Shown here: positions 1 through 45,687 of the stretch, piece after piece
Position numbering within the stretch: the stretch's first letter is position 1
Layout: each line of letters starts with the position of its first letter
Virus record (IMG/VR): IMGVR_UViG_3300016667_000188
Location: 9,026-73,025 of that record
DNA length: 64,000 bases
Reading direction: 5' to 3' (one strand)
Source: a virus
Notes under the pieces: model-generated
Told to the model about the DNA's origin: nothing
Databases searched by the model: none
What the model saw: only the letters and a program-made list of their open reading frames with translations
Program-made: the position numbers and the translations under genes

Positions 1-1302
1 ACTTCTAGTGGTTACGGTGGCGGATCAGCAGTCTACGCAACTAGAAACTTTATGTTCGATGTGATTAATCCATCTATTCAGATGCAGAATTTCTCTGACA
101 CAAAGTCTAGTTTCTACTTTATGGGAACTTCTGGTTCTTCTGCAGATGGTACACAGACTGCTTATGTTGCAGACACAGCAATGACACCATGCTTGATTAA
201 GCAGAATAACTACTTTATTGCTCCAAAGGTTGTTGCTTCTGAGATTAACGAAAACACATCAATGGGTGGTAACAAATCTGTTGTGTTCAGTGCGCTGATC
301 TCTACTACTAATGATGCAGTTTCTCCAGTTATCGACACTGCTCGTGCAAGTATGATCGCTGTTTCTAATAAGTTGAACTCCCCAACAGAGAATAACACAA
401 ACGTACCTGCTCTTGATATTAAGTTAATGTTCGCAGGTGCTGCAGGAACTATCACTGGTGTTCCAAATGCTGGCGTCTCTGTGAGCGTCGCAGGTGGCAC
501 TTACAACTATGCTATTACTGGTACATTGCTAACATTGAGTGGGTCTCAGTCGCTAAGTGCTGGAACCCAATACTACTATGCAAATAGACTATACCTATGT
601 ACTGTGGCAGGAACTGCAAGCACTAGTGCACCAACTCATACATATGGTACTGCAACTAACGGAACTGCTACCCTGCAATATGTAGGAAGTGCGTGTTCTA
701 TAACTTCTACAAACTCTACTGTTAGAGGTTTGATGGCTGGTCTCGGTATCGGAAGATACATTATAACTGGTGGATCAAGTAACACCGCTAATAATGGCAC
801 ATGGCTTGTTACTGGTTATAGTGATGACGGAACTACAGGAACTGTTTATGTAGATTCTACTGTTGGAAACGTATTCACAGTAGAAACTGTTACATCTTCA
901 TCGATCTACGTAGCGGTAAAAGAATTGTTCTCCGACGATATCAGCCCAGAAGGAAGTTCTACTCTAAGCAAGTATGTAACTAACCCAGTTAAGTTTGCAA
1001 ATCCATCGACTTACCTGCGTTTGAGTTTTGCGGCAAGTATTCCGTCTGAGGCAGATGTTCAGGTTTACTACAAGACTTGTATCGGCGATTCAAAGCAATT
1101 AGCTACAACTAAATATACGTTATTGAGCCCAGACTCAACTCTACCTAAGATTGCCGTTGGAAATCCAGTATTCTCAGATGTGACTTACACATTAACAAAT
1201 ATGGCAGCTTTTGATAGTATAGTTGTTAAAATTGTTATGAAATCTACAAATACTTCCGCTGTTCCTCTAATCAAAGATTTGAGAATTATTGCTTGCCCAT
1301 AA
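1..1302 (+). CDS. virion structural protein, 5'-partial (Ser/Thr/Gly-rich, baseplate/tail-fibre-like)
   Basis: Frame is open from nt 1 into ORF 52..1302, so the gene starts upstream of the window. Low-complexity S/T/G/N-rich composition typical of fibre or baseplate proteins. Position lies upstream of tail-fibre genes. Confidence 0.5.
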   Translation, partial: TSSGYGGGSAVYATRNFMFDVINPSIQMQNFSDTKSSFYFMGTSGSSADGTQTAYVADTAMTPCLIKQNNYFIAPKVVASEINENTSMGGNKSVVFSALISTTNDAVSPVIDTARASMIAVSNKLNSPTENNTNVPALDIKLMFAGAAGTITGVPNAGVSVSVAGGTYNYAITGTLLTLSGSQSLSAGTQYYYANRLYLCTVAGTASTSAPTHTYGTATNGTATLQYVGSACSITSTNSTVRGLMAGLGIGRYIITGGSSNTANNGTWLVTGYSDDGTTGTVYVDSTVGNVFTVETVTSSSIYVAVKELFSDDISPEGSSTLSKYVTNPVKFANPSTYLRLSFAASIPSEADVQVYYKTCIGDSKQLATTKYTLLSPDSTLPKIAVGNPVFSDVTYTLTNMAAFDSIVVKIVMKSTNTSAVPLIKDLRIIACP

Positions 1303-1303
1303 A

Positions 1304-1528
1304 ATGGATTATCTAAAAGTTCAAGGACATGAAGGTTTAGTTCGAGACGTCTCGACAGGAGCCATCATTAACACAGATAAAACAGAATACGACAGGTATT
1401 TGGAAACCCGCCGAAAGGCGGAACAGCGTGAAAACACAATATCTCAACATACTCTTGAGATAAATAATATAAAGAATGAGTTACAAGACATAAAAAACCT
1501 ACTTGTACAACTCGTTAATAAAAGTTGA
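1304..1528 (+). CDS. hypothetical small protein (coiled-coil C-terminus)
   Basis: ORF 1289..1528. The first ATG after the upstream stop is at 1304. Product is K/E-rich. Confidence 0.35.
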   Translation: MDYLKVQGHEGLVRDVSTGAIINTDKTEYDRYLETRRKAEQRENTISQHTLEINNIKNELQDIKNLLVQLVNKS

Positions 1529-1542
1529 CAAAAGGATCATAA

Positions 1543-2742
1543 ATGGCAAACATTTCAGCACCTTCAATTACGTTAAGAACTACCAAAGGTAGTCCCTTAA
1601 CTAACGCCGAAGTTGATGCTAACTTTAGTAATATTAGTACTGCATTACAGACTGGTTTAACTGCAGCTTCTTACACTGCAGCTGATGTTCTAGCTAAAAT
1701 TCTCACTGTTGACGGTGCTGGTTCTGGCTTAGACGCTGACGTACTAGATGGCTACAATCAAGATACAGCAAATACGGCAAACACAATCGTTCGTCGTGAT
1801 GCAAGCGGTAACTTCTCCGCTGGTACTATTACTGCTACCTTGGCTGGTAATGCTTCTACCGCTACTGCTCTTACAGCAACTTTAGCTGTTGGTTCTGGTG
1901 GTACTGGCTCTACTACTGCTGCAGGGGCGAGAACTAACTTAGGTCTAGAAATTGGTGTAAACGTCCAAGCGTATGACACTGAACTACAAGCTCTTGCTGG
2001 ACTTACATCAGCTGCAGATAAAGTTCCATATTTCACAGGTTCTGGTACAGCTAGCCTATACACTGCCAGTTCTTTTATGCGTGGTCATATGGCAGATGCC
2101 GATGCGATTACCGCTCGCTCAACTCTTGGCGTTCGAATTGGTACAGATGTCCAACCTTTCGATAATAAACTAACTTCTATCGCTGGTTTGGCTACAGTTG
2201 ACAGGGGCTTCATTACTAAGAATGGAGACTCTACAACTGTCGTTAGAGCAATCGCTGGAACTACTGGTAGAATCGTAATTACTAACGCTGATGGTGCCGC
2301 TGGTAATCCAACAATCAACTGCGGTAGCGATGTTCCTACTTTGGCTGGAAATAACACATTTGCTGGCACTACAAATACTTTCTCTGGTATAACTGCTGGC
2401 GCTATCACAGCTACATCATTAACTGCTAGTGGTGACATTACAGGCGCAACAGTTACTACTTCTTCAGACGCAAGACTTAAGCAAGACGTTAAAACGCTAA
2501 ATAATGCTGTAGAGCTCGTTAATTCCCTTCGTGGTGTTTCTTATATTAAGAACGGTAAGGCTGAGATTGGCGTTATCGCCCAAGAAATCGAAGAACATCT
2601 TCCTCAAGTAGTTAGCGAAGATCAAAATGGATTTAAGACTGTGGCTTATGGTAACATAGTTGGTTTGCTAATCGAAGCTATAAAAGGGCAACAAAGAACT
2701 ATAAATGAGCTAACTGCTCGATTAGAAAAACTGGAGAAATAA
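1543..2742 (+). CDS. tail fibre protein with C-terminal intramolecular-chaperone (peptidase S74-like) autoprocessing domain
   Basis: The C-terminus SDARLKQDVK...GVSYIKNG...IGVIAQEIEEHLPQVV...LEKLEK matches the endosialidase/tail-spike chaperone domain signature. The N-terminal part is G/T/A-rich fibre sequence. Shares the module RDASGNFSAGTITA..NASTAT with the 14248 gene. Confidence 0.7.
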   Translation: MANISAPSITLRTTKGSPLTNAEVDANFSNISTALQTGLTAASYTAADVLAKILTVDGAGSGLDADVLDGYNQDTANTANTIVRRDASGNFSAGTITATLAGNASTATALTATLAVGSGGTGSTTAAGARTNLGLEIGVNVQAYDTELQALAGLTSAADKVPYFTGSGTASLYTASSFMRGHMADADAITARSTLGVRIGTDVQPFDNKLTSIAGLATVDRGFITKNGDSTTVVRAIAGTTGRIVITNADGAAGNPTINCGSDVPTLAGNNTFAGTTNTFSGITAGAITATSLTASGDITGATVTTSSDARLKQDVKTLNNAVELVNSLRGVSYIKNGKAEIGVIAQEIEEHLPQVVSEDQNGFKTVAYGNIVGLLIEAIKGQQRTINELTARLEKLEK

Positions 2743-2743
2743 A

Positions 2744-3103
2744 ATGGGTATTGCTGCAACTGGATTTAAGATTTCCTCTGGCGCTGACTTAAATGGCGTT
2801 ATGTGGGGATATACTGGGGAAGTACGAAGAGATATTACTGAATCTGTTAACTGTACATTTAACTGCAATTGCCGTTGCGACGTTAACTGTAACTGTAACT
2901 GCGACCCTGCTGACTTGGCATTGAACGTATACTTGACCGATTATAGAATTGATGCGTTTAGAAACACCGCATATAACGACGGTATCCGTCCTGAAGTCCA
3001 AGACGGAACACCTTCTTTGGGTCTAACACGTTACTACAGAACAAACTGTAATTGTAACTGTAACTGTAACTGCCAGTGTCAGTGCAATTGCGCTTGTAAG
3101 TAA
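2744..3103 (+). CDS. Cys/Asn dipeptide-repeat protein (NCNCNC...; 27 Cys in 119 aa)
   Basis: Two blocks of CN/CQ/CR repeats (NCNCRCDVNCNCNCD and NCNCNCNCNCQCQCNCACK) flank a non-repetitive core. An RBS-like sequence lies upstream. The gene sits immediately downstream of a tail-fibre gene. Confidence 0.5.
   Translation: MGIAATGFKISSGADLNGVMWGYTGEVRRDITESVNCTFNCNCRCDVNCNCNCDPADLALNVYLTDYRIDAFRNTAYNDGIRPEVQDGTPSLGLTRYYRTNCNCNCNCNCQCQCNCACK
2849..2902 (+). repeat. tandem hexanucleotide repeat block 1, (AACTGY)-like x9, in-frame
   Basis: Nine consecutive 6-nt units of the form aactgt/aactgc/aattgc and similar, seen directly in the sequence. Confidence 0.8.
3044..3097 (+). repeat. tandem hexanucleotide repeat block 2, (AACTGY / CAGTGY) x9, in-frame
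   Basis: aactgt aattgt aactgt aactgt aactgc cagtgt cagtgc aattgc gcttgt. Confidence 0.8.
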
Positions 3104-3115
3104 TAGGAGACACAG

Positions 3116-3943
3116 ATGACAATGCTAAGAGTACAACCACTAGCCAATGTTAAGTACAAAGCTAAGTTTTATAAATTGGATGCAAATTCATTCAAAATTG
3201 ATCTGTCACTGGTAACTGGTGATGTTGACTGGGCTCCTATTGAGGGTGAAAAAGACCCAGAAGTTAAAACCCTAATTAGTACAGTGGTAGATAGCCGTGA
3301 GTATACAAAAACTGATTTTCCACTGCCAACCAGAGCACATCAGTTATACACTATTTTGCAAAAAGATGGTAAACTAACTGATATTATTGCTGTGTATGAT
3401 GTCACTCAAACAAGAAAAGAGAGTATCCCACAAAGAGAACACTCTGTTAGAAACGAGAATAATACTGTTGTTATGGGTATTTACAGCTGTGATCCAATTA
3501 ATGATGTTGATGTATTTAGCGATAATACTGTAATCGCTTTTTCAGACAGCATAGACGAGCCTTCTTTAGTTTCTGAATATGATGCTTCTTTATCTGAGGT
3601 GCTCGATACACCTATTATGAAGACTAGTGATGAGCAATACAGCCAATCCTTTATGGCTACTTATCCTAAAGTAACTATCACTTCTGCTGATACTGTTCAG
3701 GCTGGACAACCACTAGTTGTTACAGTTTCTATGGAAAAGGTTGTGAACAAATCCAATAAAATTGAAGTGTTTCTATACAATTCAATGGGTGTTTCGAATA
3801 AACAAAGAATATCTTTGGCAGATGGTGAATCTAGTGAGATCACTATTAACACTGAAGGATTGGTTGCTGGTGAAGAAATTATCTTCAAAGTCAATTTCTA
3901 TAACTACACAAGTTTTGCTAAGAAAACTATCGCCGTTGTATAA
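3116..3943 (+). CDS. hypothetical protein
   Basis: 275-aa ORF with an AGGAGA RBS immediately upstream. No motif recognised. Confidence 0.5.
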   Translation: MTMLRVQPLANVKYKAKFYKLDANSFKIDLSLVTGDVDWAPIEGEKDPEVKTLISTVVDSREYTKTDFPLPTRAHQLYTILQKDGKLTDIIAVYDVTQTRKESIPQREHSVRNENNTVVMGIYSCDPINDVDVFSDNTVIAFSDSIDEPSLVSEYDASLSEVLDTPIMKTSDEQYSQSFMATYPKVTITSADTVQAGQPLVVTVSMEKVVNKSNKIEVFLYNSMGVSNKQRISLADGESSEITINTEGLVAGEEIIFKVNFYNYTSFAKKTIAVV

Positions 3944-3963
3944 TTAACCAAACCTCCGCATAA

Positions 3964-3994
3964 ATACCTTAGTGGAAACGCTAAGGTATTTTTC
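3964..3994 (+). terminator. rho-independent terminator (9-bp stem ATACCTTAG/CTAAGGTAT plus U-run)
   Basis: Perfect inverted repeat 3964-3972 / 3981-3989 followed by ttttcatt. Overlaps an ATAAATA motif at 3960-3966. Confidence 0.6.
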
Positions 3995-4003
3995 ATTACA
4001 GTT

Positions 4004-4846
4004 ATGATTTTTCATCGTCTAGATAAGCAATACAAAGTTAACTATAGCATTAAACCTGCAAATAAAAGGCAGATTTATGAGTTTCAGATCAAACAAAATT
4101 TTAACCAAGACATTCTAAAGATATTATCTGAAAATTCACCACAAGGATTTAGAACAGCTGAAGGTGAGAATCGCTCATATAAATCGATCTCCCTTGTTTA
4201 TAATGATAAGATTGATGATGTAGATCCACTATACTCTACACTGGGTTCGAGTAAAATATCAAATTCAAAGCAATACTACGGTTCAAAAGAATTGTCAGAT
4301 TCATTGGGACTTAAAGAAAATTCTTATTATGACACATATGGATTCAATAAACGAACATCGGTAACTTATGTCGGCGAGTTTAAAGAATTCATCGATTCAT
4401 TTAAATGTTCTTTGATTCGATCAAGAATCTCCGTAATTCCTTCAAATGATATTAATGTAACCAAGTTCTCATATCTCTGGCATAGGGACGAAACTGTTTT
4501 TGAAAACCTTAGATTTAATATCCCAATTCAGACTGCAGATAATTATCTGTTCCAACTTGAAGATAAAATAATTCGACCATCACCGCAATCTCCAACTATG
4601 ATAACAAAGCATCTAGAGGTTGGTAAAGCATATTCTTGGGATACTAATAAACCCCATCGTGTGTTTGCGGATAAAGTTGGAATAATTGATCGGATTCATA
4701 TAGTTTTAGGTTTTAGTCCTTGGTTTGATTATCACCAAGAAACTGATTCTTGGACACCAAACGAATTTTTTAACAAAAAACACCCACATGATATGTTAAT
4801 TGATGGGGATGTAATTCCTTCTAAATACATAGAGTATCTTGGATAA
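4004..4846 (+). CDS. hypothetical protein, possibly Fe(II)/2OG-oxygenase-like (WHRDE ... HRVF)
   Basis: An HxD/E ... H arrangement (WHRDETVF, KPHRVFADK) is compatible with a cupin-type facial triad. Weak evidence. Confidence 0.35.
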   Translation: MIFHRLDKQYKVNYSIKPANKRQIYEFQIKQNFNQDILKILSENSPQGFRTAEGENRSYKSISLVYNDKIDDVDPLYSTLGSSKISNSKQYYGSKELSDSLGLKENSYYDTYGFNKRTSVTYVGEFKEFIDSFKCSLIRSRISVIPSNDINVTKFSYLWHRDETVFENLRFNIPIQTADNYLFQLEDKIIRPSPQSPTMITKHLEVGKAYSWDTNKPHRVFADKVGIIDRIHIVLGFSPWFDYHQETDSWTPNEFFNKKHPHDMLIDGDVIPSKYIEYLG

Positions 4847-4858
4847 CGGAGCCATATT

Positions 4859-5614
4859 ATGCGTATATCTCATAATCACGCAGTGAGATCTTTGCAGGTC
4901 TTAAATCACATTCTATTTGCCATCGGGTTGTGGTACGTATTCGCCACGGCATCATACTTTTTATTATTGGTGGCATTATTCACTTACTGGACTATTGGTA
5001 TTCTAGGAATTAATGTTGGATTACATCGCTTATTATCCCATAGATCATTTAAAACAAATCCAATAATCGAAAAGGTGTTATCTGTTATTGGAGTTTTAAC
5101 CACAGTGGGATCCCCATTAGCTTGGGTTGCTGTTCACCGACACCATCATCGTGCAGCTGATAGACCAAACGATGTACATTCACCATATCAATTAGGTTGG
5201 TGGCGTGCTTGGTTTGGCTTTTGGAATTATGATGGTATCGAGATGAAGCTCGTTAGAGATATGAGACGAGACGCATTTCAAAAAAATTGTCACAAGTATT
5301 ATTTCCACATAATCGCAGTATATTGTATAATTCTGGCACTAATTAACCCATGGTTGATTATATTTGCTTATTGTATTCCAGCTAGTTTATGTTTGCATTC
5401 TAGCTCTGCCATCATTGTTATTGCACATATCCATGGATATGTGAATCACGAGTTAAAACATGACCAAGCTAAAAACTCTTGGATTGCTAATTTAATAACA
5501 ATGGGTGAAGGATGGCATAACAATCACCATGCTAAACCCTATGCTTGGTCTAATTGGGAAAACTGGTGGGAGTGGGATATTCCTTCATTAGTCATTAGAG
5601 TTATTAAAACATGA
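4859..5614 (+). CDS. membrane fatty-acid desaturase (delta-9 acyl-lipid/acyl-CoA desaturase-like), copy 1
   Basis: Three histidine boxes HRLLSH, HRHHH and HNNHH in the canonical order, with hydrophobic TM stretches between them. Confidence 0.7.
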   Translation: MRISHNHAVRSLQVLNHILFAIGLWYVFATASYFLLLVALFTYWTIGILGINVGLHRLLSHRSFKTNPIIEKVLSVIGVLTTVGSPLAWVAVHRHHHRAADRPNDVHSPYQLGWWRAWFGFWNYDGIEMKLVRDMRRDAFQKNCHKYYFHIIAVYCIILALINPWLIIFAYCIPASLCLHSSSAIIVIAHIHGYVNHELKHDQAKNSWIANLITMGEGWHNNHHAKPYAWSNWENWWEWDIPSLVIRVIKT

Positions 5615-6369
5615 CATTCGGAAAAAACTTCTTTCTGGTTTTCTTACCATTACACATTCTTGGTATTGTTGGTCTTTACTTTGCTCCAAGCAATTTAATA
5701 ACTCTATTTGTTATTTGGTTTTTGATTGGGGTTATTGGTAATGGCGTGGCAGCGCATAGATATTTCGCCCATGGACAGTTCACTTGTTCAACACCAACCA
5801 AATGGGTATTAGGATTTCTTTCAACACTTGGTGGTATTGGTCCAATTAGCTATTGGATGATTCAACATAAAACACACCATATTAGAGCAGACAGCGAAAA
5901 TGATCCCCACTATACAGGTAAGGGGATTTGGTACACCATGTATTCTTGGACATTTCCGCAAGGAAATAATGAGAAACAATATATGAAAGAAAGATTCGCT
6001 AAAAGATTGGCAGTTCAAATCGCAAAAGATCCATTCTTATCTTTTTTTCACAAGTATCATTATTTTATCATATACAGTTTTTGTATAATTCTGGCTGTTA
6101 TTAACCCAGTATACTTGTTCCTATATGCACTAGCTTATTGCTTAGACTTTATGAGGCTAGGATTAGTTAATTACTTTTGCCATGGCACAGGCTATAGAAA
6201 CCATGAAACCCAAGACAAGTCAACAAATAACTTATTATTGGGTTTATTAGGAATGGGGTTTGGATGGCATAATAACCACCATGCATCTCCAGGGAAACTT
6301 ATATTAACTGAGAGATGGTGGGAAATTGATGTAGAAGGTTATCTTGGAAAACTGTTTAGTAAAATTTAA
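5611..6369 (+). CDS. membrane fatty-acid desaturase-like, copy 2 (tandem paralogue)
   Basis: His boxes HRYFAH, HKTHH and HNNHH. Paralogous to 4859..5614. Stop and start overlap (ATGA). Confidence 0.7.
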   Translation: MTFGKNFFLVFLPLHILGIVGLYFAPSNLITLFVIWFLIGVIGNGVAAHRYFAHGQFTCSTPTKWVLGFLSTLGGIGPISYWMIQHKTHHIRADSENDPHYTGKGIWYTMYSWTFPQGNNEKQYMKERFAKRLAVQIAKDPFLSFFHKYHYFIIYSFCIILAVINPVYLFLYALAYCLDFMRLGLVNYFCHGTGYRNHETQDKSTNNLLLGLLGMGFGWHNNHHASPGKLILTERWWEIDVEGYLGKLFSKI

Positions 6370-6986
6370 GAGTTTCCAACTTCCCATGTTTTAATTACTG
6401 TTTCCATATATTCATCACAATTTGGGTATTTGCGATACTCTTGTCTAAGTACCCAATTTACAATTACAATATCAGTTTTTGCTACTCTGTTATTAAATAT
6501 GTTTGATGAGAATAGATGATATTTCGATGATCTACCTTTTGGTACAATTTCTTCAATAAACAAATCATATCTTGATAGAATGTCACTTTTCATTCTATAT
6601 TTTGAGATTCTATAAGACAGCGGTCTGGCGTAATAAAATTGATGATATCCATTATCTTCCATATATTTTACTGAGTGTTCCATCAATTTAAATATACCAT
6701 TCTTATTCATCCAAAGAGATGATGGTCTTGAAGTAACATACGCCATATACCAAGAGTTTTGCCCCTGCAACTTAATGTTTAGGATTACGCTGTGTAATTT
6801 GTCTTCAATATAATAACCAAAGACGTTACCCTTATAATCAAATCTTAAACATTCAATAAAAGTCTCTAATAAATTTTCATTTAGAGATTCTTCTTTTATA
6901 ACTTTGGCTGATTTTTCTCTTAGATTAAGTATCTCTTCAATCTCTTTTTTATGTAAAAGGTTTAATTTTTTTATCTCCATAAACAC
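6366..6986 (-). CDS. hypothetical protein
   Basis: 206-aa minus-strand ORF. Start of an ORF string that opposes the flanking + genes. Confidence 0.45.
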   Translation of the reverse strand: MFMEIKKLNLLHKKEIEEILNLREKSAKVIKEESLNENLLETFIECLRFDYKGNVFGYYIEDKLHSVILNIKLQGQNSWYMAYVTSRPSSLWMNKNGIFKLMEHSVKYMEDNGYHQFYYARPLSYRISKYRMKSDILSRYDLFIEEIVPKGRSSKYHLFSSNIFNNRVAKTDIVIVNWVLRQEYRKYPNCDEYMETVIKTWEVGNS

Positions 6987-7756
6987 TCGTCCTTATATTT
7001 CTCAACACTGGATTCCAGCAATTTATATAAAGCGTCATTATTAAATTTTTTCCATCCTAAGAAAAAGATAATTCTATCACCAATTTCTTGATTGTGAGTT
7101 TCTACAGCATGAACTCCCCTGACGCTATTCAAAATGAATGGATATTTACCTGAGTTTCGTTTAACAATAAGTTTTTTACTAAAATCATATTGTTTTGATA
7201 AGTCAACCTTTTCTGTTTTTCCATCTGGTCTAACTTTCCAAGTTTGCACTCTTTCTTCTAGAGGTTCAAACGATGGGTGAAAATATAACTGAGCTCTTTC
7301 TTTTTTAGTTATGTAAAATCTAAACCCGAACCAATCTTCTGGGTCGCTATGTGGAAATACAGTCTTTTCTTGTTTTTGGGCTAATGCTTGCACTCCCCAT
7401 AAGTCATCTAAGTCTGCTGGGAATAATTTTATGTATTCTACAAGTTCTGGAAATCTTTTATCAAACCCATTCATCCAACCAATATTAACACCTGAATTGA
7501 CATATGGAAATGTTGTAATCCAAGGATATTCCTGCTGTTCAACTGATTTCACATTTCCAATAATTGGTAAACCTAGCTTATCAGCTGTACCTGTTTTAAT
7601 TAGAGTTTTGGTTGCGTTATTATCTGTTTCAATCATCCACTCAGTTAATCTTTTAATATCAACTTCTGGAGGTTCTGGTAAATCTAAAGGGCAGTAAATC
7701 AAATCTTTGAATTTACTCAAATGGTCCATGTCTAAAATTCTAATGTGTTTTTTCAT
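6971..7756 (-). CDS. hypothetical protein, HxD...H paralogue A (putative cupin/2OG-Fe(II) oxygenase-like)
   Basis: Paralogous to 7758..8441 (IYCPLDLPEPPEVDI vs IYTPLDLPTPPKVDI; FPHSDPEDWFGFRFY vs FPHSDHDKFFGLRYY). Conserved HSD ... GVHAV motif. Confidence 0.5.
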   Translation of the reverse strand: MKKHIRILDMDHLSKFKDLIYCPLDLPEPPEVDIKRLTEWMIETDNNATKTLIKTGTADKLGLPIIGNVKSVEQQEYPWITTFPYVNSGVNIGWMNGFDKRFPELVEYIKLFPADLDDLWGVQALAQKQEKTVFPHSDPEDWFGFRFYITKKERAQLYFHPSFEPLEERVQTWKVRPDGKTEKVDLSKQYDFSKKLIVKRNSGKYPFILNSVRGVHAVETHNQEIGDRIIFFLGWKKFNNDALYKLLESSVEKYKDECLWR

Positions 7757-7757
7757 A

Positions 7758-8441
7758 TTAATACCAAATTGCGTAGTCTTTGTATTTGTCAGTAGATCTT
7801 TTCAGTAGCGCAAGCATCTCATCCATCTTGTAACCTCCATTACTAGGTGAGGGTATCACTGAGATTCTATCGCCAAATGTGCCTGGTTTAGCATCTACTC
7901 CGTGTAGTGCTCTAATGTTATTTAAAAACCAAGCATGAGGGTAAGGTAGTTGTTTTGGATGGATTTTAACTTTGTCAGTAATCTCAATAAGTTTTTTACC
8001 TTCTTTAAATTTATCTGGAACATCTTCAAGGCGTTCTTTTGTTTTCATAAAATAAAGCCCAGTGTCTTGTTCAGAGAAGTTTAGATAGTATCTAAGTCCA
8101 AAAAATTTATCATGATCACTATGTGGGAATACTGTTTCAGTTGCATACTGCACAGTAAAGATATAAGATCCAGGGTTTACTGGAAAATTAAAGTAGTAGT
8201 CATATATCTCTGGAAATTCTTTTCGTAGGTTGTTCGTCAGATAGTTGTTTTTATCTGCCATATCAACGGTGACATTCAGCCATGGATATTTGATACCCAT
8301 CTTTGCCACTTGGATTTCGTTGGAATAAATAACTTTTTTGTTGTGTTTCATCCAGTCAACAAATGACGGGATGTCAACTTTTGGTGGCGTTGGTAAATCT
8401 AATGGAGTGTAGATTATATCTTTCGCAGAATCCATGTCCAT
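7758..8441 (-). CDS. hypothetical protein, HxD...H paralogue B
   Basis: See 6971..7756. Tandem duplication on the minus strand. Confidence 0.5.
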   Translation of the reverse strand: MDMDSAKDIIYTPLDLPTPPKVDIPSFVDWMKHNKKVIYSNEIQVAKMGIKYPWLNVTVDMADKNNYLTNNLRKEFPEIYDYYFNFPVNPGSYIFTVQYATETVFPHSDHDKFFGLRYYLNFSEQDTGLYFMKTKERLEDVPDKFKEGKKLIEITDKVKIHPKQLPYPHAWFLNNIRALHGVDAKPGTFGDRISVIPSPSNGGYKMDEMLALLKRSTDKYKDYAIWY

Positions 8442-8488
8442 GATAACTCCTAAATAGTTCAGTATGAATGTATTTATAAAGGTAAACT

Positions 8489-9916
8489 ATGAAATATAAA
8501 TTGATTTTACAAGGGTCTAATGATGTGAAACAAGTCATGATGTATGACCCAATGACTTCTGAAGTGTTTTGGGAAGAGACTGGCGAACGACCATCTCTAG
8601 AGCATATTGGCAAAGACGCTGTTTACAAGATTGAAGAGCAGAACTGGATTGCTGCTAAAGTCACTAATCCAAAAGACCCAGAGCTTCATGGGCGAAAAAG
8701 TAAAAAAGTTTCTACACTAAAGATCACGATGGGTCTTAAGTGTAACTTTGCTTGTTCTTATTGCAACCAAGCGCATCAACCACATGATCCAGTTGGTGGT
8801 CCTGAAGATGCTGAAGCGTTGATCCAAAGTATCAAAAAGAATCTAACAGTTGATCCTATAGATCCTATCAGAATCGAGTTCTGGGGTGGAGAGCCATTTG
8901 TTTATTGGAAAACTCTAAAGCCACTAGCTGAAAAGGTTAGACGAGCATATCCGATGGCAACATTCAACATTATCACTAATGGTTCTTTGCTAGATCGCCA
9001 TAAAGTTGATTGGTTGTATCGAATGAACTTTAATGTTGGTATCTCTCACGATGGACCACTACACGCCCAAAATCGTGGTCCAGATCCACTAGATGATTTA
9101 ACTATGAGAGATGGAATCATCTATGCACTTAAGAAATTGGGACCAAATAGAGTTGGGTTTAACTCAGTTCTCACGAAAGAAAATGTCTCATTGGTAGCTG
9201 TTAAGCAGTTTATTTCTAAGAAATTGAACGGCGCAATCCCAGACGATCATATTATCGTCAATACAGAAGAACTCTTACTACCATACGATGCCTCTGGATT
9301 AACTCACTCTATTTCAAACTCAGATGAGGCTAAAGAGGCTATCCATAGTGTTTTCTGGGAGACTATTACTGGCGCAAATTACTTTAGCAATACAGTAACG
9401 CAAAAGGTTAAAAACTTCTTTTCTTCTATTTCTGAACAGCGCCCAGCAAAAATTCTAGGACAGAAATGCGGTATGGATCGTGAGGATATCTTAGCGATCG
9501 ATATGAAGGGTAATGCAACAACTTGCCAAAATACATCTTCTTTAACGAAACACAATATCGGTAATATTGAAGATGTAGATGCTATCCGTCTGCATACATC
9601 ACATCACTGGAGCACACGTGAGGAATGTCCTAATTGCCCAGTACTGCAACTTTGTATGGGTTCTTGCTTGTTCTTAGAAGATGATCTCTGGAAAGCTGGA
9701 TGTGAAAATATGTTCACGTGGAACTTGGCATTGCTTGCCGCAGCTTTGTTTATTATGACAGACGGTCTAGTGCTCGTTGAAATACAGGGACAGAAGATCC
9801 GCTATGACGACGTAACCTCTGTCCCTGTAATTGACATTGAATTTGTCAAGAGCAACGGAACTAAAAAGTCCTGGAAGGTTAGAAAACCTGTAGGAATTCC
9901 TGTTGTAGCTGCTTAA
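8489..9916 (+). CDS. radical SAM enzyme with SPASM-type C-terminal Cys cluster (peptide/protein-modifying maturase-like)
   Basis: CNFACSYC (CxxxCxxC) at about residue 86. Distal cluster CQNTSS...CPNCPVLQLCMGSC. About 85-aa N-terminal and about 100-aa C-terminal extensions. Confidence 0.75.
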   Translation: MKYKLILQGSNDVKQVMMYDPMTSEVFWEETGERPSLEHIGKDAVYKIEEQNWIAAKVTNPKDPELHGRKSKKVSTLKITMGLKCNFACSYCNQAHQPHDPVGGPEDAEALIQSIKKNLTVDPIDPIRIEFWGGEPFVYWKTLKPLAEKVRRAYPMATFNIITNGSLLDRHKVDWLYRMNFNVGISHDGPLHAQNRGPDPLDDLTMRDGIIYALKKLGPNRVGFNSVLTKENVSLVAVKQFISKKLNGAIPDDHIIVNTEELLLPYDASGLTHSISNSDEAKEAIHSVFWETITGANYFSNTVTQKVKNFFSSISEQRPAKILGQKCGMDREDILAIDMKGNATTCQNTSSLTKHNIGNIEDVDAIRLHTSHHWSTREECPNCPVLQLCMGSCLFLEDDLWKAGCENMFTWNLALLAAALFIMTDGLVLVEIQGQKIRYDDVTSVPVIDIEFVKSNGTKKSWKVRKPVGIPVVAA

Positions 9917-10515: not shown

Positions 10516-10634
10516 ATTATCTCCATTAAAATTAAAAATCGCTTCGCAGCTAATAAGTATTTATACATCACCTATCCTACAAAATCCCTTCGTTTATAAA
10601 TAAGAAGTATAAAAATAGTTTTTCGGGGAATTGG

Positions 10635-11235: not shown

Positions 11236-13617
11236 ATGGCTTCTATTATTAGAATTAAACGTTCTAGCACATCTGGCAACCCAGCAACGCTGGGCGCTGG
11301 TGAGTTAGCGTACTCAGCATTAGCTGACAATGGATCAAACGGCGGTGATCGTTTATACATTGGTATGGGCACAGAGACTGCAGGTAATGCAGTCAACCAC
11401 GTTATCATCGGTGGTAAATACTACACTGGTTTAGTAGACGCTGGTGGATCTGGTGGTACACTTAATACTTCTGCTAAGTCTATTCCAGTTCTTTCTGCAA
11501 CTGGTTCTATCGACAAGTGGTTAGTTGGTAATTTACAACTAACTGGTAGCACTCTTTCTTCTACTAATACCAACGGTGATATTAACATCACTCCTAATGG
11601 TACTGGTAAGACTATCATCAGCAACCTATACACAGACGCAACTACTAGCCTGACTGAGTTCATCCAGGACGTTGCTGGCGGGGGTATCGTTGACTCTGAT
11701 GAGATTGACGCAACATACGATGACGAAGCTGGTACTACATCATTAGCACTTAAGACCACAGGTGTAACAGCAGGTTCTTACGGTTCCGCAACTGCTATCC
11801 CAACATTCACTGTTGATAGTAAAGGTCGTTTGACTGCAGCTGGATCTGTTTCTGTTGCAACAACACTGAACCTAACAGGTGACACTGGTTCTGATGGCAT
11901 TTCTCTGCTAACAGAAACTCTAGCTATCGTTGGTGGTGAGGGTATCGATACTGCTATTACAGCAAATACTCTAACAATCTCTGCAGAAGATGCAAGCACT
12001 ACTAACAAGGGTGTCGCTTCTTTTGACACAGCTAACTTTACTGTAACTGCTGGTGCTGTCTCTGCGAAGACAATCACTCTTGGTTCTTCTACCCTAGCCC
12101 TTGGTTCTACAACTACTGGTCTTGCTGGTCTTTCATCTCTTGGTGTAACTGGTAATGCTACTGTTGGTGGAACACTAAATGTCACTGGTGCGACTACTTT
12201 AAGCAGCACATTAGGTGTAACTGGTAATACAACCCTAGGTGGAACATTAGGCGTTACTGGTGCAACTACTCTAAGTTCTACACTTGGTGTTGCAGGTGAC
12301 TTTGCTGTTAATACTAACAAATTCACAGTTGCTGCTACTTCTGGTAACACTAGCGTTGGTGGTACATTAAGTGTTACTGGAAACAGCACTCTTGCTGGTA
12401 CACTAGCAGTAACAAATGATTTTAGCGTTAATACCAACAAGTTTAACGTCGCAGCTTCTACTGGTAATACATCTATCGCTGGCACTCTTGGTGTAACAGG
12501 AGCAGCTACTCTATCCAGCACATTAGATGTGACTGGTAACCTTTCTGTTAACAGTAACAAATTCACAGTTGCAGCTGGTTCTGGTAACACCGCTATTGCA
12601 GGAACATTGGCAGTAACTGGTGCTGCTACATTTAGCTCTGCCGTGAATATGAGTGGTCAGAAGATCACTAACTTGGCAGAACCAACTGCTGACTCAGATG
12701 CTGCTACAAAGTACTACGTTGACGCTGCTCGCTCTGGTCTTGATATCAAGAACTCTGTTAAAGCTGCTACAACTGGTAACATCACTCTTTCTGGCACACA
12801 GGTTATTGACGGTGTAACTCTGTCTGTTGGTGATCGTGTTCTTGTTAAAGATCAAAGCACTGCTTCTCAAAACGGTATTTACGTTGTTGCTGCTGGCGCA
12901 TGGTCTCGTTCTACTGATGCTGACGCTCCAGCAGAACTAAACCCAGGAACTTTCGTATTCGTTGAACAAGGTACTGTTAACGATAACACTGGTTTCGTTG
13001 TTGTTTCTGATAGCGTTGTTACTATCGGCACTGATGCGATTAACTGGACATTGTTCTCTGCTTCTGGCACTCTAATTGCTGGTGCTGGTCTTATCAAGAA
13101 CGGTTACACTCTAGAAGCACAAGTTGGTAACGGTGTTACAATTGCAAGTGATACAATTCAACTAGCTTCCACTGTTGCTGGCGCTGGTTTGACATTCACT
13201 TCTGGTGTCTTGGATATCGTTGGAACAGCTAACCGTATCACCGTAAACGCTGACAGTATCGATATCGCATCTACTTACGTGGGTCAGTCTTCTATCACTA
13301 CTCTAGGTACTATTACTACTGGTACTTGGAACGGTTCTGTCATCGCTGATGCCTACATCAACGATGCATTGACTATCTCTGGTGGTACTATCAATAACAC
13401 ACCAATTGGTGCTACTACTCGTTCTACTGGTGCGTTTACGACTCTTGCTGCTAACGGTGCTGCTACACTAACATCTACATTAGCAGTTTCTGGTGCAACT
13501 ACTCTTAGCTCTACTTTAGCGGTAACAGGAAACATTACTGCTTCTGCTAACTTGACAGGCGCTGGTGCTTCTACTTCTACTATCGATGGTTTCACTATCG
13601 ATGGTGGAACTTATTAA
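11236..13617 (+). CDS. tail fibre protein (793 aa) with 19-aa GTLGVTGATTLSSTLGVTG-type repeats
   Basis: Tandem degenerate repeats. Carries the SVGDRVLVKDQ...QNGIYVV module shared with the 14248 gene. G/T/A/S-rich. Confidence 0.7.
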   Translation: MASIIRIKRSSTSGNPATLGAGELAYSALADNGSNGGDRLYIGMGTETAGNAVNHVIIGGKYYTGLVDAGGSGGTLNTSAKSIPVLSATGSIDKWLVGNLQLTGSTLSSTNTNGDINITPNGTGKTIISNLYTDATTSLTEFIQDVAGGGIVDSDEIDATYDDEAGTTSLALKTTGVTAGSYGSATAIPTFTVDSKGRLTAAGSVSVATTLNLTGDTGSDGISLLTETLAIVGGEGIDTAITANTLTISAEDASTTNKGVASFDTANFTVTAGAVSAKTITLGSSTLALGSTTTGLAGLSSLGVTGNATVGGTLNVTGATTLSSTLGVTGNTTLGGTLGVTGATTLSSTLGVAGDFAVNTNKFTVAATSGNTSVGGTLSVTGNSTLAGTLAVTNDFSVNTNKFNVAASTGNTSIAGTLGVTGAATLSSTLDVTGNLSVNSNKFTVAAGSGNTAIAGTLAVTGAATFSSAVNMSGQKITNLAEPTADSDAATKYYVDAARSGLDIKNSVKAATTGNITLSGTQVIDGVTLSVGDRVLVKDQSTASQNGIYVVAAGAWSRSTDADAPAELNPGTFVFVEQGTVNDNTGFVVVSDSVVTIGTDAINWTLFSASGTLIAGAGLIKNGYTLEAQVGNGVTIASDTIQLASTVAGAGLTFTSGVLDIVGTANRITVNADSIDIASTYVGQSSITTLGTITTGTWNGSVIADAYINDALTISGGTINNTPIGATTRSTGAFTTLAANGAATLTSTLAVSGATTLSSTLAVTGNITASANLTGAGASTSTIDGFTIDGGTY

Positions 13618-14247: not shown

Positions 14248-17200
14248 ATGCCAACACAAATTCAATTAAGACGTGGTACTTACGACCAACACAAAACATT
14301 CACTGGCGCTAACGCCGAGCCGACTTTTGATACGTCAAATAGAGTAATGAGACTTCACGATGGCACTACTCCAGGTGGTAGTGAAATCGTTATGGGTAAT
14401 ACTCTTTACAAGAGTTTACCTGTTAGAGTTATCTCTACTTCTAACATCACGCTGGCTGGCGTGCAGACTGTTGATGGTGTTTCTCTATCTGTTGGTGATC
14501 GTGTTCTAGTTGCTGGACAGACTGATCAGTCTAAGAACGGTATCTACACTGTTGTAGATCTACCAGGAACTTGGGTTCGTGCTTTCGATTTTGATAAGAT
14601 TTATAACATTCAAAAAGGAATGTTTGTTTATGTAGCAGAAGGTTCTACACATAATGAAACTGTTTGGAAGTTAACTTCACAACCAACAACTCTAGATTTA
14701 CACGCAATCACTTTTGAAAAATGGCTTGGTGTAGAAACACGTGGTCTAGCTCAAAACACTGTAGCAGGTATGGTGGTTCGCCAGTCTAAAGGCACATTTA
14801 CTAGCCGAGCAATTACCGTTTCTGGTCAAGGTATTACCGTCACTAACGGCGATGGTATTTCTGGCAACCCTCTACTGTCTCTTAACTCTACCCCAAACAA
14901 CACAGTTAACGCTATTATGGCTCGTGATGCCAATGGCGATTTTGCTGCAAATAATGCAACTCTGGCTGGAGATATCGCAGTTAATGGTGGTGATGTAACT
15001 ACTACATCAACAACTGCTACTCTATTCAATACCAATGCTACTACCCTGAACATTGGTAACGCAGCTACTACTGTTTCTATTGGTGCCGCTACTGGCACTA
15101 CTACGGTTCGTAATGACTTGGTTGTTAACGGAACGTTCACAGTCAACGGTACTACTGAAACGATCAATGCAGTTACGGTTACAGTAGACGACAAGAACAT
15201 TGAGTTGGGCTCAGTTGCATCACCAACTAATACTACAGCTGACGGTGGTGGTATCACTCTGAAAGGTACTACTGATAAGACTATCATTTGGCTGAACTCT
15301 AATAATTCTTGGAATTCTTCTGAAGACTTTAGTGTTGCTACTGGTAAAGTGTTTGAAGTTAACGGTGTTCCAGTATTGACTGCGAACTCTGTTCTAAATG
15401 ATGCGACTCAAACATCTATCACTGTTGGCGGTTCTGCGTCAACGATCACCATGGGTGCTTCGGGTGGTACTACAACTCTACGCTCTGGTACTCTGGTTGG
15501 TTCAGACGCAACTCAGAACGTATACAACACTGTTGCTACAACTGTTAATGCCTTCGGTGCAGCTACATCACTAAACATCGGTACTACATCTACTGGTGCA
15601 CAAACCACAAATATTGGAACTGGCGCAACTGCTAGCGCAACAACCAAGACTCTAAACTTGGCTACTGGCGGTTTGACTGGTTCTACAACTAACGTAAACG
15701 TTGGTTCTACTGCTGGCGGTTTGTTGACTATCAACAACCCTAACGTATCGTTTAACAACGGCATCGTATCGTTCACTAATACAACTGACGCAACAACATC
15801 AGCCGACGGTTCTGTTCGTTTTGCTGGTGGTATTAGCGTTGTTAAAAATATCGTATGTGATGGAACTTTCTCTATCTTCGGTGACATCTCTGTCAACGGT
15901 GGAGACATCTTAACTAACCAGACAAACGTAACTGTATTTAATACTACTGCTACAACAGCTAACTTGCTTGGTGCTGCTAGCACTATCGCTATGGGTGCTT
16001 CTGGTGGTACTACAACTCTACGTTCTGGTACTCTGGTTGGTAGCGATACTACTCAAAACCTATACAATACAGTTGCCACTACTCTAAACATTGGTGGAGC
16101 CGCAACAACTATCAACTTGGGTAACGCAACAGCGGCAACTCTGTTGACTCGTCCTGGTACTATCGTCGGTTCTAACACTACTCAATCTGTTTACGATACA
16201 GTTGCCACTACTGTTAACGCATTCGGTGCAGCAACAACTCTGACACTGGGTAATGCAACTCTTGCTACACTGACTCTGCGTCCTGGTACTATCGTCGGTG
16301 CAAATACTACTCAAAACCTTTTCAATACTGTTGCAACTACTGTTAACTTCGCTGGCGCTGCAACTGCTTTGAGTATTGGTGCTGCTACTGGTACTACTAC
16401 TGTCAACAATAACCTGTCTGTTGCTGGAACTTCTAGTCATACTGGCAACTCAACATTCTCTGGTACTGTTGGTATCACTGGTGCTACAACTCTTTCTAGC
16501 ACTCTGGGTGTTGCGGGTGACTTCTCTGTTGCAACTAACAAGTTTACTGTGGCTTCTGCCTCTGGTAACACTGCTATCGCTGGTACACTAGGTGTAACTG
16601 GTGCAGCTACTCTAAGTTCTACTCTTGCAGTAACTGGTGCCTCTACTTTCACTGGCGCTACTACCCACAACGGTGGTTTGACTGCTGCTTCTTCTAGCAT
16701 CACTGGCAACCAGACTGTTGGTGGTACTCTTGGTGTTACTGGCGCTACAACTCTTTCTAGCACTTTGGGTGTTACTGGTGCAACAACTATCGGCGGTAAC
16801 GTAGCGGTAAACGGTGGTAGCTTGACTACTACTCAGACTACGTTCAACCTAGTCAACGCAACTGCTACTACTCTAAACATTGGCGGTGCAGCTACTACAG
16901 TTTCTATTGGTGCAGCAACTGGTACTACTACTGTTAATAACAACTTGGTTGTTACTGGTAACCTAACAATCTCTGGTACTACTACAACAATCAACGCAAC
17001 TACTTTGGATGTTGCTGACCTTAACATTACTGTCGCTAAGAATGCTGCTACTGCAGCTGCTGCTAATGGCGCAGGTCTGACTGTTGCTGGCGCTAACGCC
17101 ACTATCCTTTACGCTTCTACTGGCGATCGTTGGGAACTGAACAAGCCGCTATATGTGGCAGGTACTGGCTCTATTACTGGCAACACTACTGTTGGTGGTA

Positions 17201-44292: not shown

Positions 44293-45687
44293 ATGAGCAT
44301 TTCAAAATCAATCATTCTAAACACCGACAGCTATAAAGTTAGCATGTTCAAACAGTATCCTGCAGGTACGACTGGTGTTTATTCCTATATTGAATCACGT
44401 GGTGGACGCTATGATCGCACTGTGATGTTCGGTCTCCAAGCCTTCATTAAGGAGTATCTACTTGATCCAATTACCCAAGCCGACATTGATATTGCTGATG
44501 AGATACTCACTACTCACGGAGAACCCTTCAACCGAGAAGGATGGGAATATATCCTACGTGTCCACGATGGTTATCTCCCAGTCGTTATTCGTGCAGTTCC
44601 TGAGGGTACAGTGGTTCCTGTTAAAAATGTTTTGGCTACAATTGAAAACACGGATCCTGAATGCTATTGGTTGACTACTTATCTGGAAACTGCTCTTCTG
44701 CGTGCAGTCTGGTATCCAACCACTGTGGCTACTCAAAGCTACACCATTCGCAAAGTGATCATCGAATATCTGGAGAAAACTGGTGACCCTAGCCTTATTG
44801 ATTTCAAACTGCACGACTTCGGTGCTCGTGGCGTTTCTTCTATGGAAAGCGCAGGAATTGGCGGTGCTGCCCACTTGGTTAACTTCATGGGTACTGATAC
44901 CATCACTGGTCTTCTGTATGCTCGTGAGTATTACAATGCTGGTATTGCTGCTTTCTCTATCCCTGCCGCAGAACACAGTACCATCACCAGCTGGGGTCGT
45001 GACAACGAAGTAAAAGCCTATGACAACATGCTTACTCAGTTTGCTAAGCCTGGTAGTATCGTTGCAGTGGTCAGCGATAGCTATGATATCTTCAACGCTG
45101 CATCTAAACTCTGGGGTGAAGAACTCAAGCAGAAAGTTATTGATAGTGGCGCTACTATTGTCATCCGTCCAGACTCTGGCGATCCTGATACTGTTTGCCG
45201 TAAACTTGTAGAAATTCTCGGTCAAAAGTTCGGTTACACTACTAACGACAAAGGATACAAGGTTCTGAACAACGTCCGCATTATCCAAGGTGACGGTGTG
45301 AATGAACAAACTATCCGCACTATCCTTGGTGGCTTTGCTGCTTACGGTTGGTCTGCTGACAACATTGCTTTCGGTATGGGTGGTGCTCTACTGCAACAAG
45401 TCGATCGTGACACTCAGAAGTTCGCAATGAAGTGTTCTGCTGCTCTGATCAACGGTGAGTGGGTGGATGTGCAAAAAGATCCTGTCACTGACGCTGGTAA
45501 GAAGTCTAAAGCAGGTCGTGTGCAACTTTGGGAAAGTGGTGGTGAGTTTATCTCTTCTGTCACTCGTCCTAATACTTGGACTGATCGTGGCTTTGCATGG
45601 GCTCCAGCGTTGCAAGAAGTGTTCCGTGACGGTAAACTTGTAACCGAGTACACCTTCGAGCAAGTCCGAGCCAACGCCAAAAAGTAA
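44293..45687 (+). CDS. nadV: nicotinamide phosphoribosyltransferase (NAMPT, KVP40 NadV-like)
   Basis: 464 aa with a NAMPT-like length and composition (e.g. GTDTITGL, FGMGGALLQ segments). Paired with the NMNAT-Nudix gene. Confidence 0.75.
   Translation: MSISKSIILNTDSYKVSMFKQYPAGTTGVYSYIESRGGRYDRTVMFGLQAFIKEYLLDPITQADIDIADEILTTHGEPFNREGWEYILRVHDGYLPVVIRAVPEGTVVPVKNVLATIENTDPECYWLTTYLETALLRAVWYPTTVATQSYTIRKVIIEYLEKTGDPSLIDFKLHDFGARGVSSMESAGIGGAAHLVNFMGTDTITGLLYAREYYNAGIAAFSIPAAEHSTITSWGRDNEVKAYDNMLTQFAKPGSIVAVVSDSYDIFNAASKLWGEELKQKVIDSGATIVIRPDSGDPDTVCRKLVEILGQKFGYTTNDKGYKVLNNVRIIQGDGVNEQTIRTILGGFAAYGWSADNIAFGMGGALLQQVDRDTQKFAMKCSAALINGEWVDVQKDPVTDAGKKSKAGRVQLWESGGEFISSVTRPNTWTDRGFAWAPALQEVFRDGKLVTEYTFEQVRANAKK

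Follow-up and report, generated by a model that had tools for sequence, protein, structure and literature searches.

A stretch of 64,000 nucleotides of viral DNA (positions 9,026 to 73,025 of IMG/VR record IMGVR_UViG_3300016667_000188), here called the window, contains a small gene, CN119, which lies directly behind a tail-fibre gene and encodes a protein ending in a run of alternating asparagine and cysteine residues. The same C-terminal motif occurs in other, non-homologous proteins, and in both directions of search and across unrelated phage backbones it is coupled to a gene for one family of radical S-adenosylmethionine (rSAM) enzymes with a SPASM domain. With moderate confidence, we propose that the CN119 tail and an accompanying Cys cluster form a portable module that serves as substrate of the co-encoded rSAM/SPASM enzyme, which most likely installs multiple thioether cross-links. 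The pairing suggests that the tips of phage fibres are chemically modified in a way not described so far. Radical-SAM/SPASM enzymes mature small peptides, namely ribosomally made peptides that are modified after translation (RiPPs), and a few cellular enzymes. If the proposal is true, a dedicated rSAM enzyme for receptor-binding fibre tips would constitute a new class of virion modification and would be relevant to how these tips become stable or receptor-specific.

The open reading frame (ORF) of 119 aa that a first-pass annotation had pointed out, together with its translation, was reproduced exactly, and its placement beside tail-fibre genes was borne out as well, since the fibre gene upstream, which encodes a Peptidase_S74 domain, ends one base before the CN119 start codon. 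The same annotation had described two blocks of nine hexanucleotide units each. The coordinates and the unit numbers hold, but the DNA repeats are imperfect and only one of the blocks alternates throughout. Block 1 (2849-2902) reads NC TF NC NC RC DV NC NC NC, i.e. a variable residue followed by Cys (X-Cys) in seven of nine units, and block 2 (3044-3097) reads NC NC NC NC NC QC QC NC AC, with X-Cys in all nine, before a final Lys and the stop codon. For 2884-2901, Tandem Repeats Finder counted 3.0 perfect copies, and for 3044-3072 it counted 4.8 copies (91%). Overall, 16 of the 119 residues are Cys (13%), and there are many Phe, Tyr and Trp residues. When the whole window was scanned in six frames for (C-x)>=3-C, using stop-free segments of at least 40 aa, the CN119 ORF was the sole match.

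An alignment of 18 distinct CN119 homologues with 50-90% identity revealed that length, frame and every Cys position are kept, all Cys being invariant while X varies. The family is small: only 10 homologue clusters were found among 5.8 billion proteins, and IMG/VR holds eleven further CN119 loci. A protein identical to that of the window (P0019) is recorded on 12 contigs. Because the homologues conserve length, frame and Cys, and because identical copies exist on many contigs, CN119 is a real gene; a spurious ORF or an assembly collapse is rejected on the same grounds. The first-pass annotation had considered such a collapse, which is also made unlikely by the 90% cluster of the window protein, where six near-identical variants (25 contigs in total) differ by point substitutions only and all measure 119 aa. 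Relatives of CN119 were absent from Pfam, PHROG, NCBIfam and the PDB sequences. A nucleotide comparison of window positions 1-9000 with 50,697 phage records yielded no match, and the tblastn search with CN119 was likewise empty.

To describe the motif we compared 112 distinct tails, collected both from viral contigs and from genomes of bacteria; codon and residue statistics refer to 60 distinct tails. In 98 of the 112 the stop codon is at most 8 residues away. The remaining 14 tails are internal, and each is directly followed by a Hint-type motif (consensus C|FPAGTxVxMADG) whose predicted cleavage would expose the tail as a new C-terminus. In these 14 relatives the first Cys of the Hint domain is the last tail Cys or stands within a few residues of it. 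An example is gp028 of Achromobacter phage JWF, a T4 gp36-like fibre with ...RQNCNCDCNCNCSC and a Hint domain immediately after (Pfam Hom_end_hint PF05203, 47.5 vs 32.1), which starts at residue 308, the last tail Cys. The side fibre of Ralstonia phage RSP15 terminates in ...NTNCQCGN. The consensus is NCNCG-x-F-NC-[RY]-[TS]-N-(CN)3-(CX)n. The first two X positions are Asn in 60/60 tails and the third in 55/60; in total X is N 286, A 92, D 38, Q 5, T 4 and S 3 times, and tails across the family hold 4-11 Cys.

The proteins bearing this tail range from 84 to 726 aa and are non-homologous, many of them being recognisable tail fibres. They include trimeric fibres with a T7-tail-N domain and collagen repeats, T4 gp36-like fibres, proteins of 130-200 aa and the CN119 family. 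Cys cluster 1 of CN119 matches the pre-motif NCNCG-x-x-NC, which directly precedes the tail in other carriers, and CN119 has retained both halves of the motif with about 45 conserved residues between cluster 1 and tail. A hidden Markov model (HMM) of the CN119 body, run against all ORFs of the fetched loci, detected no homology to other carriers; since it matched the CN119 family only, CN119 is not a detached piece of one of them. Some loci carry two tail genes. Locus L202 has a Hint-coupled carrier at 761-1585 (...CQCECACQCDC...C|FLAGSLVLMSDG) and then, at 1595-1837, a gene for an 80-aa protein ending in NCHCNCNCQC, and in locus L265 two small carriers (107 and 93 aa) stand upstream of one rSAM gene.

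The coupling between tail and enzyme was examined in both directions. Starting from the enzyme, we found 573 relatives in IMG/VR and fetched 79 viral loci with an rSAM alignment. Almost all viral loci with at least 3 kb of upstream sequence have a same-strand ORF ending in CNCNC(XC)n at 0.7-5.4 kb upstream, and three of the four apparent exceptions bear short tails (NCQCGN, NCNCNCSNC and NCNCACCGG, each up to the stop codon). The result was replicated in bacterial genome contigs, where the tail was present in 54 of 60 rSAM loci and only two other tail matches occurred in 1.03 Mb translated in six frames. There are 169 rSAM relatives across the GTDB species genomes; the bacterial hosts of the loci are mostly freshwater Alpha- and Betaproteobacteria, and the modules in these genomes presumably sit in prophages. 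The rSAM-plus-tail module (loci L096-L175) is common in genomes and metagenome-assembled genomes of Limnohabitans, Ferrovibrio, Rhodospirillales, Polynucleobacter and Comamonadaceae.

Starting from the tail, viral contigs were searched with an enzyme-blind DNA pattern for NCNCNCNC, and tails were counted if they were C-terminal in an ORF of 90 aa or more that had 3.5 kb or more of downstream sequence. A gene of this rSAM family was located within 6 kb on the same strand for 35/35 C-terminal tails, as opposed to 1/33 other pattern matches, which were mostly short AT-rich ORFs and giant-virus noise. Nearly all carriers lie 0-5 kb upstream of the same enzyme family on the same strand. A gene of the p275 family directly follows the carrier in most loci, and in some loci p275 is missing and the rSAM gene starts less than 20 nt after the carrier stop. 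The phage backbones concerned are a T4-like myovirus, the Ackermannviridae phage RSP15 and the siphovirus-type phage JWF, and the coupling persists down to about 25-40% rSAM identity. Since it spans non-homologous carriers, different backbones and such low identity, the coupling points to a functional link rather than inherited synteny. One of the roles offered by the first-pass annotation, that CN119 would be the substrate of an rSAM enzyme, is strongly supported by comparative genomics in both directions.

By its domains and cysteine pattern, the enzyme encoded at 8489-9916 is a complete radical-SAM/SPASM protein. The rSAM core matched PF04055 (33.6 bits vs a cut-off of 29.5), and the CxxxCxxC motif (C85-x3-C89-x2-C92) is invariant in the alignment. 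The SPASM domain matched TIGR04085 (35.6 bits vs 27); for this domain we required a pattern of about seven Cys, CX9-15GX4C ... CX2CX5CX3C ... C, and all seven (C327, C346, C380, C383, C389, C393 and C405) are invariant. Of the NCBIfam matches below threshold, the best were PapB, nif11-rSAM, the anaerobic sulfatase-maturating enzyme (AnSME), CcpM and QhpD. The nearest curated families are maturases for Cys-rich peptides or proteins (PapB, CcpM, QhpD, SCIFF) as well as AnSME. PapB (NF047865) ranked first, yet with 74.9 bits vs a cut-off of 340; AnSME (TIGR03942) reached 61 bits vs 349.45 (E 1e-16) and QhpD (TIGR03906) 56.8 vs 453 (residues 20-196, E 1.5e-15). Among PDB sequences the nearest relative was 8vpo, followed by AnSME 4k36-39 (about 1e-10 over residues 74-398) and CteB 5wgg. 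Homologues with 38-40% identity exist in two cultured, unrelated phages, JWF and RSP15, in both cases encoded directly after tail-fibre genes; the depositors annotated the JWF homologue as AnSME. Five viral loci (L031, L036, L042, L062 and L069) have, directly upstream of the main rSAM/SPASM gene, an additional rSAM-like ORF that is shorter (about 335 aa), which suggests that some versions of the module use two radical enzymes.

According to the mechanism that we propose, CN119 would be a small protein co-expressed with the tail fibre, and its functional element would be the T-N-(C-N)3-(C-X)n tail with the upstream Cys cluster. Elsewhere the tail would end the fibre proteins themselves, or precede a self-cleaving Hint domain that exposes a new C-terminus. 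The rSAM/SPASM enzyme would modify the tail by forming several thioethers, each linking the sulfur of a Cys to a neighbouring Asn, Asp or Ala at its beta- or alpha-carbon. A flexible Cys-rich tail would thereby become a rigid ladder at the fibre's distal tip that is affected neither by redox state nor by proteases, and co-encoded Fe(II)/2-oxoglutarate (2OG)-type oxygenases may decorate it further in some lineages. That the enzyme acts on the tail, which bond it makes and where on the virion the product resides is what we infer. Thioethers appear most likely because the substrate is Cys-rich, because the X set matches the acceptors of NxxcB and because PapB sets a precedent at the C-terminus. 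The beta-thioether enzyme NxxcB uses Asn as native acceptor and tolerates Ala, Gln and Asp (PMC9389541). The same set, N, A, D and Q, is found at X, and in an alternating tail every X stands three residues before a Cys, i.e. in an N-x-x-C register. PapB couples Cys also with a carboxylate residue at the C-terminus of its peptide (PMC12373016), which offers a rationale for the strict C-terminal rule of the tail.

More tentatively, and in our view with the odds against it, the (Asn-Cys)n tail at the fibre tip might be turned by the rSAM enzyme, in some cases together with oxygenases, into a polycyclic thioether or metal-binding, RiPP-like warhead that itself contacts the receptor, for example by mimicking a metallophore or a peptide ligand of a host outer-membrane transporter. 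If this were true, it would be the first case of a structural protein of the virion being modified after translation by a radical-SAM enzyme, and receptors would be recognised in a new way.

Several observations weigh against the tail being the substrate of a thioether-forming enzyme. One viral locus (L057) and 6 of the 60 bacterial loci have no detectable tail. In the window itself CN119 and the rSAM gene are 5.4 kb and eight genes apart, and p275, being encoded between carrier and enzyme in most loci, might be what the enzyme really acts on, or a partner that is required. The chemistry of the enzyme is unreadable from homology because no curated equivalog cut-off is reached, and its nearest relative of solved structure by sequence, 8vpo, is a cyclopropyl-synthase RiPP maturase and not a thioether synthase. 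AlphaFold2 gave no confident model of CN119 from a 10-sequence alignment (predicted local distance difference test, pLDDT, 34). Finally, the frequent Ala at X combined with the conservation of all Cys would also fit a metal-binding or disulfide role.

This last point leads to a live rival, which we regard as unlikely: the tail may be an unmodified structural element, three C-x-C strands of which bind metal or an Fe-S cluster or form disulfide ladders at a trimeric tip, the rSAM gene being linked for another reason, e.g. because its product targets p275 or some molecule of the host. C-x-C is a classic motif for binding metal through thiolates, X varies but none of the Cys does, the carriers include trimeric fibres with collagen repeats and of T7 type, and a structure depending on oligomerisation or a cofactor would fit the missing AlphaFold2 monomer fold. 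However, a purely structural tail leaves the 35/35 and 54/60 co-occurrence with one enzyme family across unrelated backbones unexplained, and likewise the loci in which the rSAM gene directly follows the carrier and the restriction of X to N/A/D/Q; p275 has neither a conserved Cys nor another obvious rSAM target. Also live, and in our estimate improbable, is AnSME-like chemistry on the same tail, in which Cys would be converted to formylglycine or undergo another non-cross-linking change, giving a reactive or hydrated poly-aldehyde tip. AnSME is among the best full-length matches of the enzyme, lends its name to the deposited JWF homologue, and targets folded proteins and not leader peptides, as would be needed for the large carriers. 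Nevertheless, the score falls far short of the family cut-off (61 vs 349), the sulfatase motif C/S-x-P/A-x-R is absent from the tails, and no AnSME substrate is known that resembles a row of nine adjacent targets.

A further reading, very improbable to us, would make CN119 not a part of the virion but the free precursor of a RiPP-like natural product, such as a toxin, signal or metallophore that lysis releases. The small size of CN119 and of the 130-aa carriers, the neighbouring radical-SAM/SPASM enzyme and the additional tailoring oxygenases speak for it, but we recognised no leader/core organisation and no protease or exporter in the module, most loci place the same tail on bona fide fibres of 350-726 aa, and CN119 is predicted to be translationally coupled to the fibre gene. 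We attach the least probability to a contingency locus, in which slippage at the hexanucleotides would yield fibre decorations of varying length and thereby diversify the host range or help the phage to escape defence. Slippage and length variability had been suggested in the first-pass annotation, and they do find a counterpart elsewhere in the family. Apart from the spread of Cys numbers between lineages, the sister lineages L014 and P0031, as well as L074 and P0046, have near-identical bodies and are exactly one 18-nt NCNCAC unit apart, which gives 9 or 6 Cys; the tails of L014 (9989-10375) and L074 (6412-6798) are perfect 18-nt tandem repeats, (AACTGT AACTGC GCATGT)x2.7. Repeat units are thus gained and lost in the family. 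Among adjacent identical dipeptides of the 60 tails, identical hexamers are in slight excess (65/210 vs 54 expected). Within the window cluster, by contrast, the comparison of repeat number that the annotation had recommended revealed no difference among the six variants. The long perfect DNA repeats of a contingency locus were not found, the longest perfect run being usually 1-2 hexamers in the tails and 2-3 in the window. Since synonymous codons are near random and the cluster is fixed at 119 aa, the repeat is kept by selection at the protein level and is no microsatellite in the window; moreover, all observed changes are in-frame, which precludes on/off switching.

The thioether proposal can be placed next to several known systems. 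A radical-SAM/SPASM enzyme paired with a Cys-rich substrate is a known logic: PapB/PapA (freyrasin), NxxcB/NxxcA and CteB/SCIFF likewise have the enzyme gene beside a Cys-rich substrate with short repeated motifs, and for the phage enzyme PapB is the best NCBIfam match and CteB is among the best PDB matches, as in ranthipeptide systems. In common with sacti- and ranthipeptides, a Cys-rich protein is tied to a maturase gene with two-way co-occurrence. In contrast to their leader-bearing peptides of 40-60 aa, the phage motif forms tails of structural proteins of up to 726 aa, alternates strictly as X-Cys and is strictly C-terminal, and the enzyme reaches no family cut-off. For the RiPP recognition element (RRE) and the protease or exporter of such pathways no counterpart was found either: the Pfam scan reported no PqqD (RRE-type) domain at E <= 0.01, and none of the module's genes could be recognised as a protease or exporter. 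QhpD is a radical-SAM/SPASM enzyme that puts several Cys-to-Asp/Glu thioethers into a protein subunit, QhpC, and not into a secreted peptide. This maturation of the gamma-subunit of quinohemoprotein amine dehydrogenase resembles the phage system in its protein substrate, and TIGR03906 matches the phage enzyme from the N-terminal region on. It differs in that the score lies far under the cut-off, and QhpC lacks an X-Cys repeat and is neither viral nor a fibre protein. AnSME also acts, as a SPASM enzyme, on Cys in full-length proteins and aligns over nearly the full length, although the phage system has no sulfatase and no C-x-P/A-x-R motif.

Alternating ligands are known from the needle of T4 gp37, with its His-x-His iron sites, and from the C-x-C motifs of metallothioneins, a comparison that we take as a lead only. 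As in gp37, the ligand residues alternate in a beta-strand-compatible manner at the distal tip of trimeric fibres, but the ligand is Cys instead of His and the phage tail comes with a dedicated radical enzyme. CN119 shares C-x-C motifs with metallothioneins, yet is rich in aromatic residues and Asn with comparatively little Cys; it does not qualify as metallothionein-like and had no Pfam metallothionein match. Self-cleaving fibre modules (Peptidase_S74; Hint/BIL) are a further parallel, given the S74 end of the window fibre and the Hint domains behind the tail of 14 relatives. We found no published description of the tail/rSAM system in the literature, nor, in the searchable literature, a Hint domain coupled to an rSAM-associated Cys repeat. 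NCBIfam (June 2026), Pfam and PHROGs contain no model for the tail carriers, and no curated rSAM family claims the enzyme. What appears to be new is that such a pair would serve the fibre tips of virions, that the C-terminal tail alternates, and that one variant is coupled to a Hint domain.

A C-terminal NCNCNC(XC)n together with this rSAM family may serve as a genome-mining rule, with hundreds of loci at hand (573 in IMG/VR, 169 in GTDB). The module is widespread, from the presumed prophages of freshwater Alpha- and Betaproteobacteria to T4-like, Ackermannviridae and siphovirus-type phages. As the cultured phages JWF (Achromobacter) and RSP15 (Ralstonia) carry it, the hypothesis is directly testable, and we propose the tail sequence TNCNCNCNC as synthetic peptide substrate. 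The Cys ladder and its Hint variant may interest peptide engineers who seek enzymatic, redox-stable stapling.

Table 1. Features of the window that belong to or surround the proposed module.
Feature	Position	Strand	Evidence or remark
Tail-fibre gene, 399 aa, C-terminal Peptidase_S74 intramolecular-chaperone domain	1543..2742	+	Pfam PF13884, E 3.8e-13; PHROG tail-fibre families
CN119, 119-aa Cys-Asn repeat protein	2744..3103	+	ATG to TAA; lineage-specific carrier of C-terminal (N-C)n tail
Cys cluster 1 (NCTFNCNCRCDVNCNCNC)	2849..2902	+	Family alignment; position-specific consensus of the residues preceding 112 tails
C-terminal tail NCNCNCNCNCQCQCNCAC, nine X-Cys units, then Lys and stop	3044..3097	+	Proposed modification site
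p275 family protein, 275 aa	3116..3943	+	BLAST cluster of 64 members; locus architectures
p280, putative Fe(II)/2-oxoglutarate oxygenase	4004..4846	+	Invariant H160-x-D162...H218...R230; weak PDB match
Two tandem fatty-acid-desaturase-family genes	4859-5614 and 5611-6369	+	PF00487, E 1.7e-15 and 1.3e-14
p206	6366-6986	-	Pfam/NCBIfam empty
Two paralogues with PHSD...H motif	6971-7756 and 7758-8441	-	Motif read from sequence; Pfam/NCBIfam empty
Radical-SAM/SPASM enzyme, 475 aa, proposed maturase of (N-C)n tail	8489..9916	+	PF04055, PF13353, TIGR04085

The junction between the fibre gene and CN119 reads AAA-TAA-A-ATG, with GGAG 7 nt before the ATG and CN119 in the +1 frame. The gap is tight in all related loci, mostly 1 nt and 2 nt in L011 and L014. 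CN119 is thus, by its arrangement, translationally coupled to the tail-fibre gene. A programmed +1 frameshift fusing the two products was considered and rejected: GGAG stands at the usual Shine-Dalgarno spacing, which fits translational coupling, and in a fusion CN119 would sit behind the S74 domain, which gets cleaved off.

CN119-family loci with enough sequence show the order big structural protein, p79, S74 fibre, CN protein, p275-like gene and rSAM gene; the 4.5-kb insert of oxygenase and desaturase genes in the window is missing from the others. The p275 family is very divergent (mean column identity 16%). Its AlphaFold2 model (pLDDT 43.6) is moderately confident only for residues ~185-275, a C-terminal immunoglobulin (Ig)-like beta-sandwich, for which Foldseek returned generic Ig-like matches only. 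The protein is possibly a fibre-tip partner, an adhesin or an assembly factor.

The assignment of p280 as an enzyme is an inference from its motif, the best PDB match being weak ('Beta-hydroxylase' 7v4f, E 0.53). The gene recurs between p275 and the rSAM gene in distant loci, including as a homologue, ORF046, in phage RSP15. Neither p280 nor the two PHSD...H paralogues, which also have HxD...H-type motifs, matched Pfam or NCBIfam; all three are probably Fe(II)/2OG oxygenases that have escaped recognition and are linked to the module. Recognisable Fe(II)/2OG oxygenases, too, recur between p275 and the rSAM gene, and 18 of 20 members of one family (c3) carry PF13759. The two desaturase genes overlap by 4 nt. 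Desaturase genes occur in the same interval in L072, and in L087 at 24-29% identity; they could serve host-lipid modification or be part of a tail-modification pathway. The three minus-strand genes between the desaturases and the rSAM gene, possibly further oxygenases and optional parts of the module to judge from their motifs, are represented in L019, L072 and L087 by homologues of 26-45% identity. L019, the 5' end of which is cut off, has the order desaturase, p206, ox, rSAM. L087 shares the p280, 'ox', desaturase and p206 genes of the window at 24-43% identity, with an rSAM enzyme 39% identical. Because identity is so low, the association with oxygenases and desaturases is old and no recent insertion.

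The backbone of the window is that of a T4-like myovirus, with large terminase, sheath, portal and a gp23-type capsid protein, the latter ~63% identical to those of cyanophage P-TIM40, OM43 phage Melnitz and Pelagibacter phage Mosig. The T4-type late-promoter motif TATAAATA is not enriched across the window (4 observed vs 3.2 expected). All three sites in the region around the module, at 8471-8478 (-), 10558-10565 (-) and 10595-10602 (+), are intergenic and closely precede the starts of the oxygenase-like operon on the minus strand, of p200 and of p111. The two large fibre genes further downstream contain long in-frame tandem repeats, of 72-nt units at 12139-12290 (p793) and of 129-nt units at 16015-16364 (p1438), and p1438 ends in an S74-like region resembling the fibre upstream of CN119. 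An auxiliary NAD-salvage gene, a nicotinamide phosphoribosyl transferase homologue (PHROG 448, E 7e-168), is located at 44293-45687.

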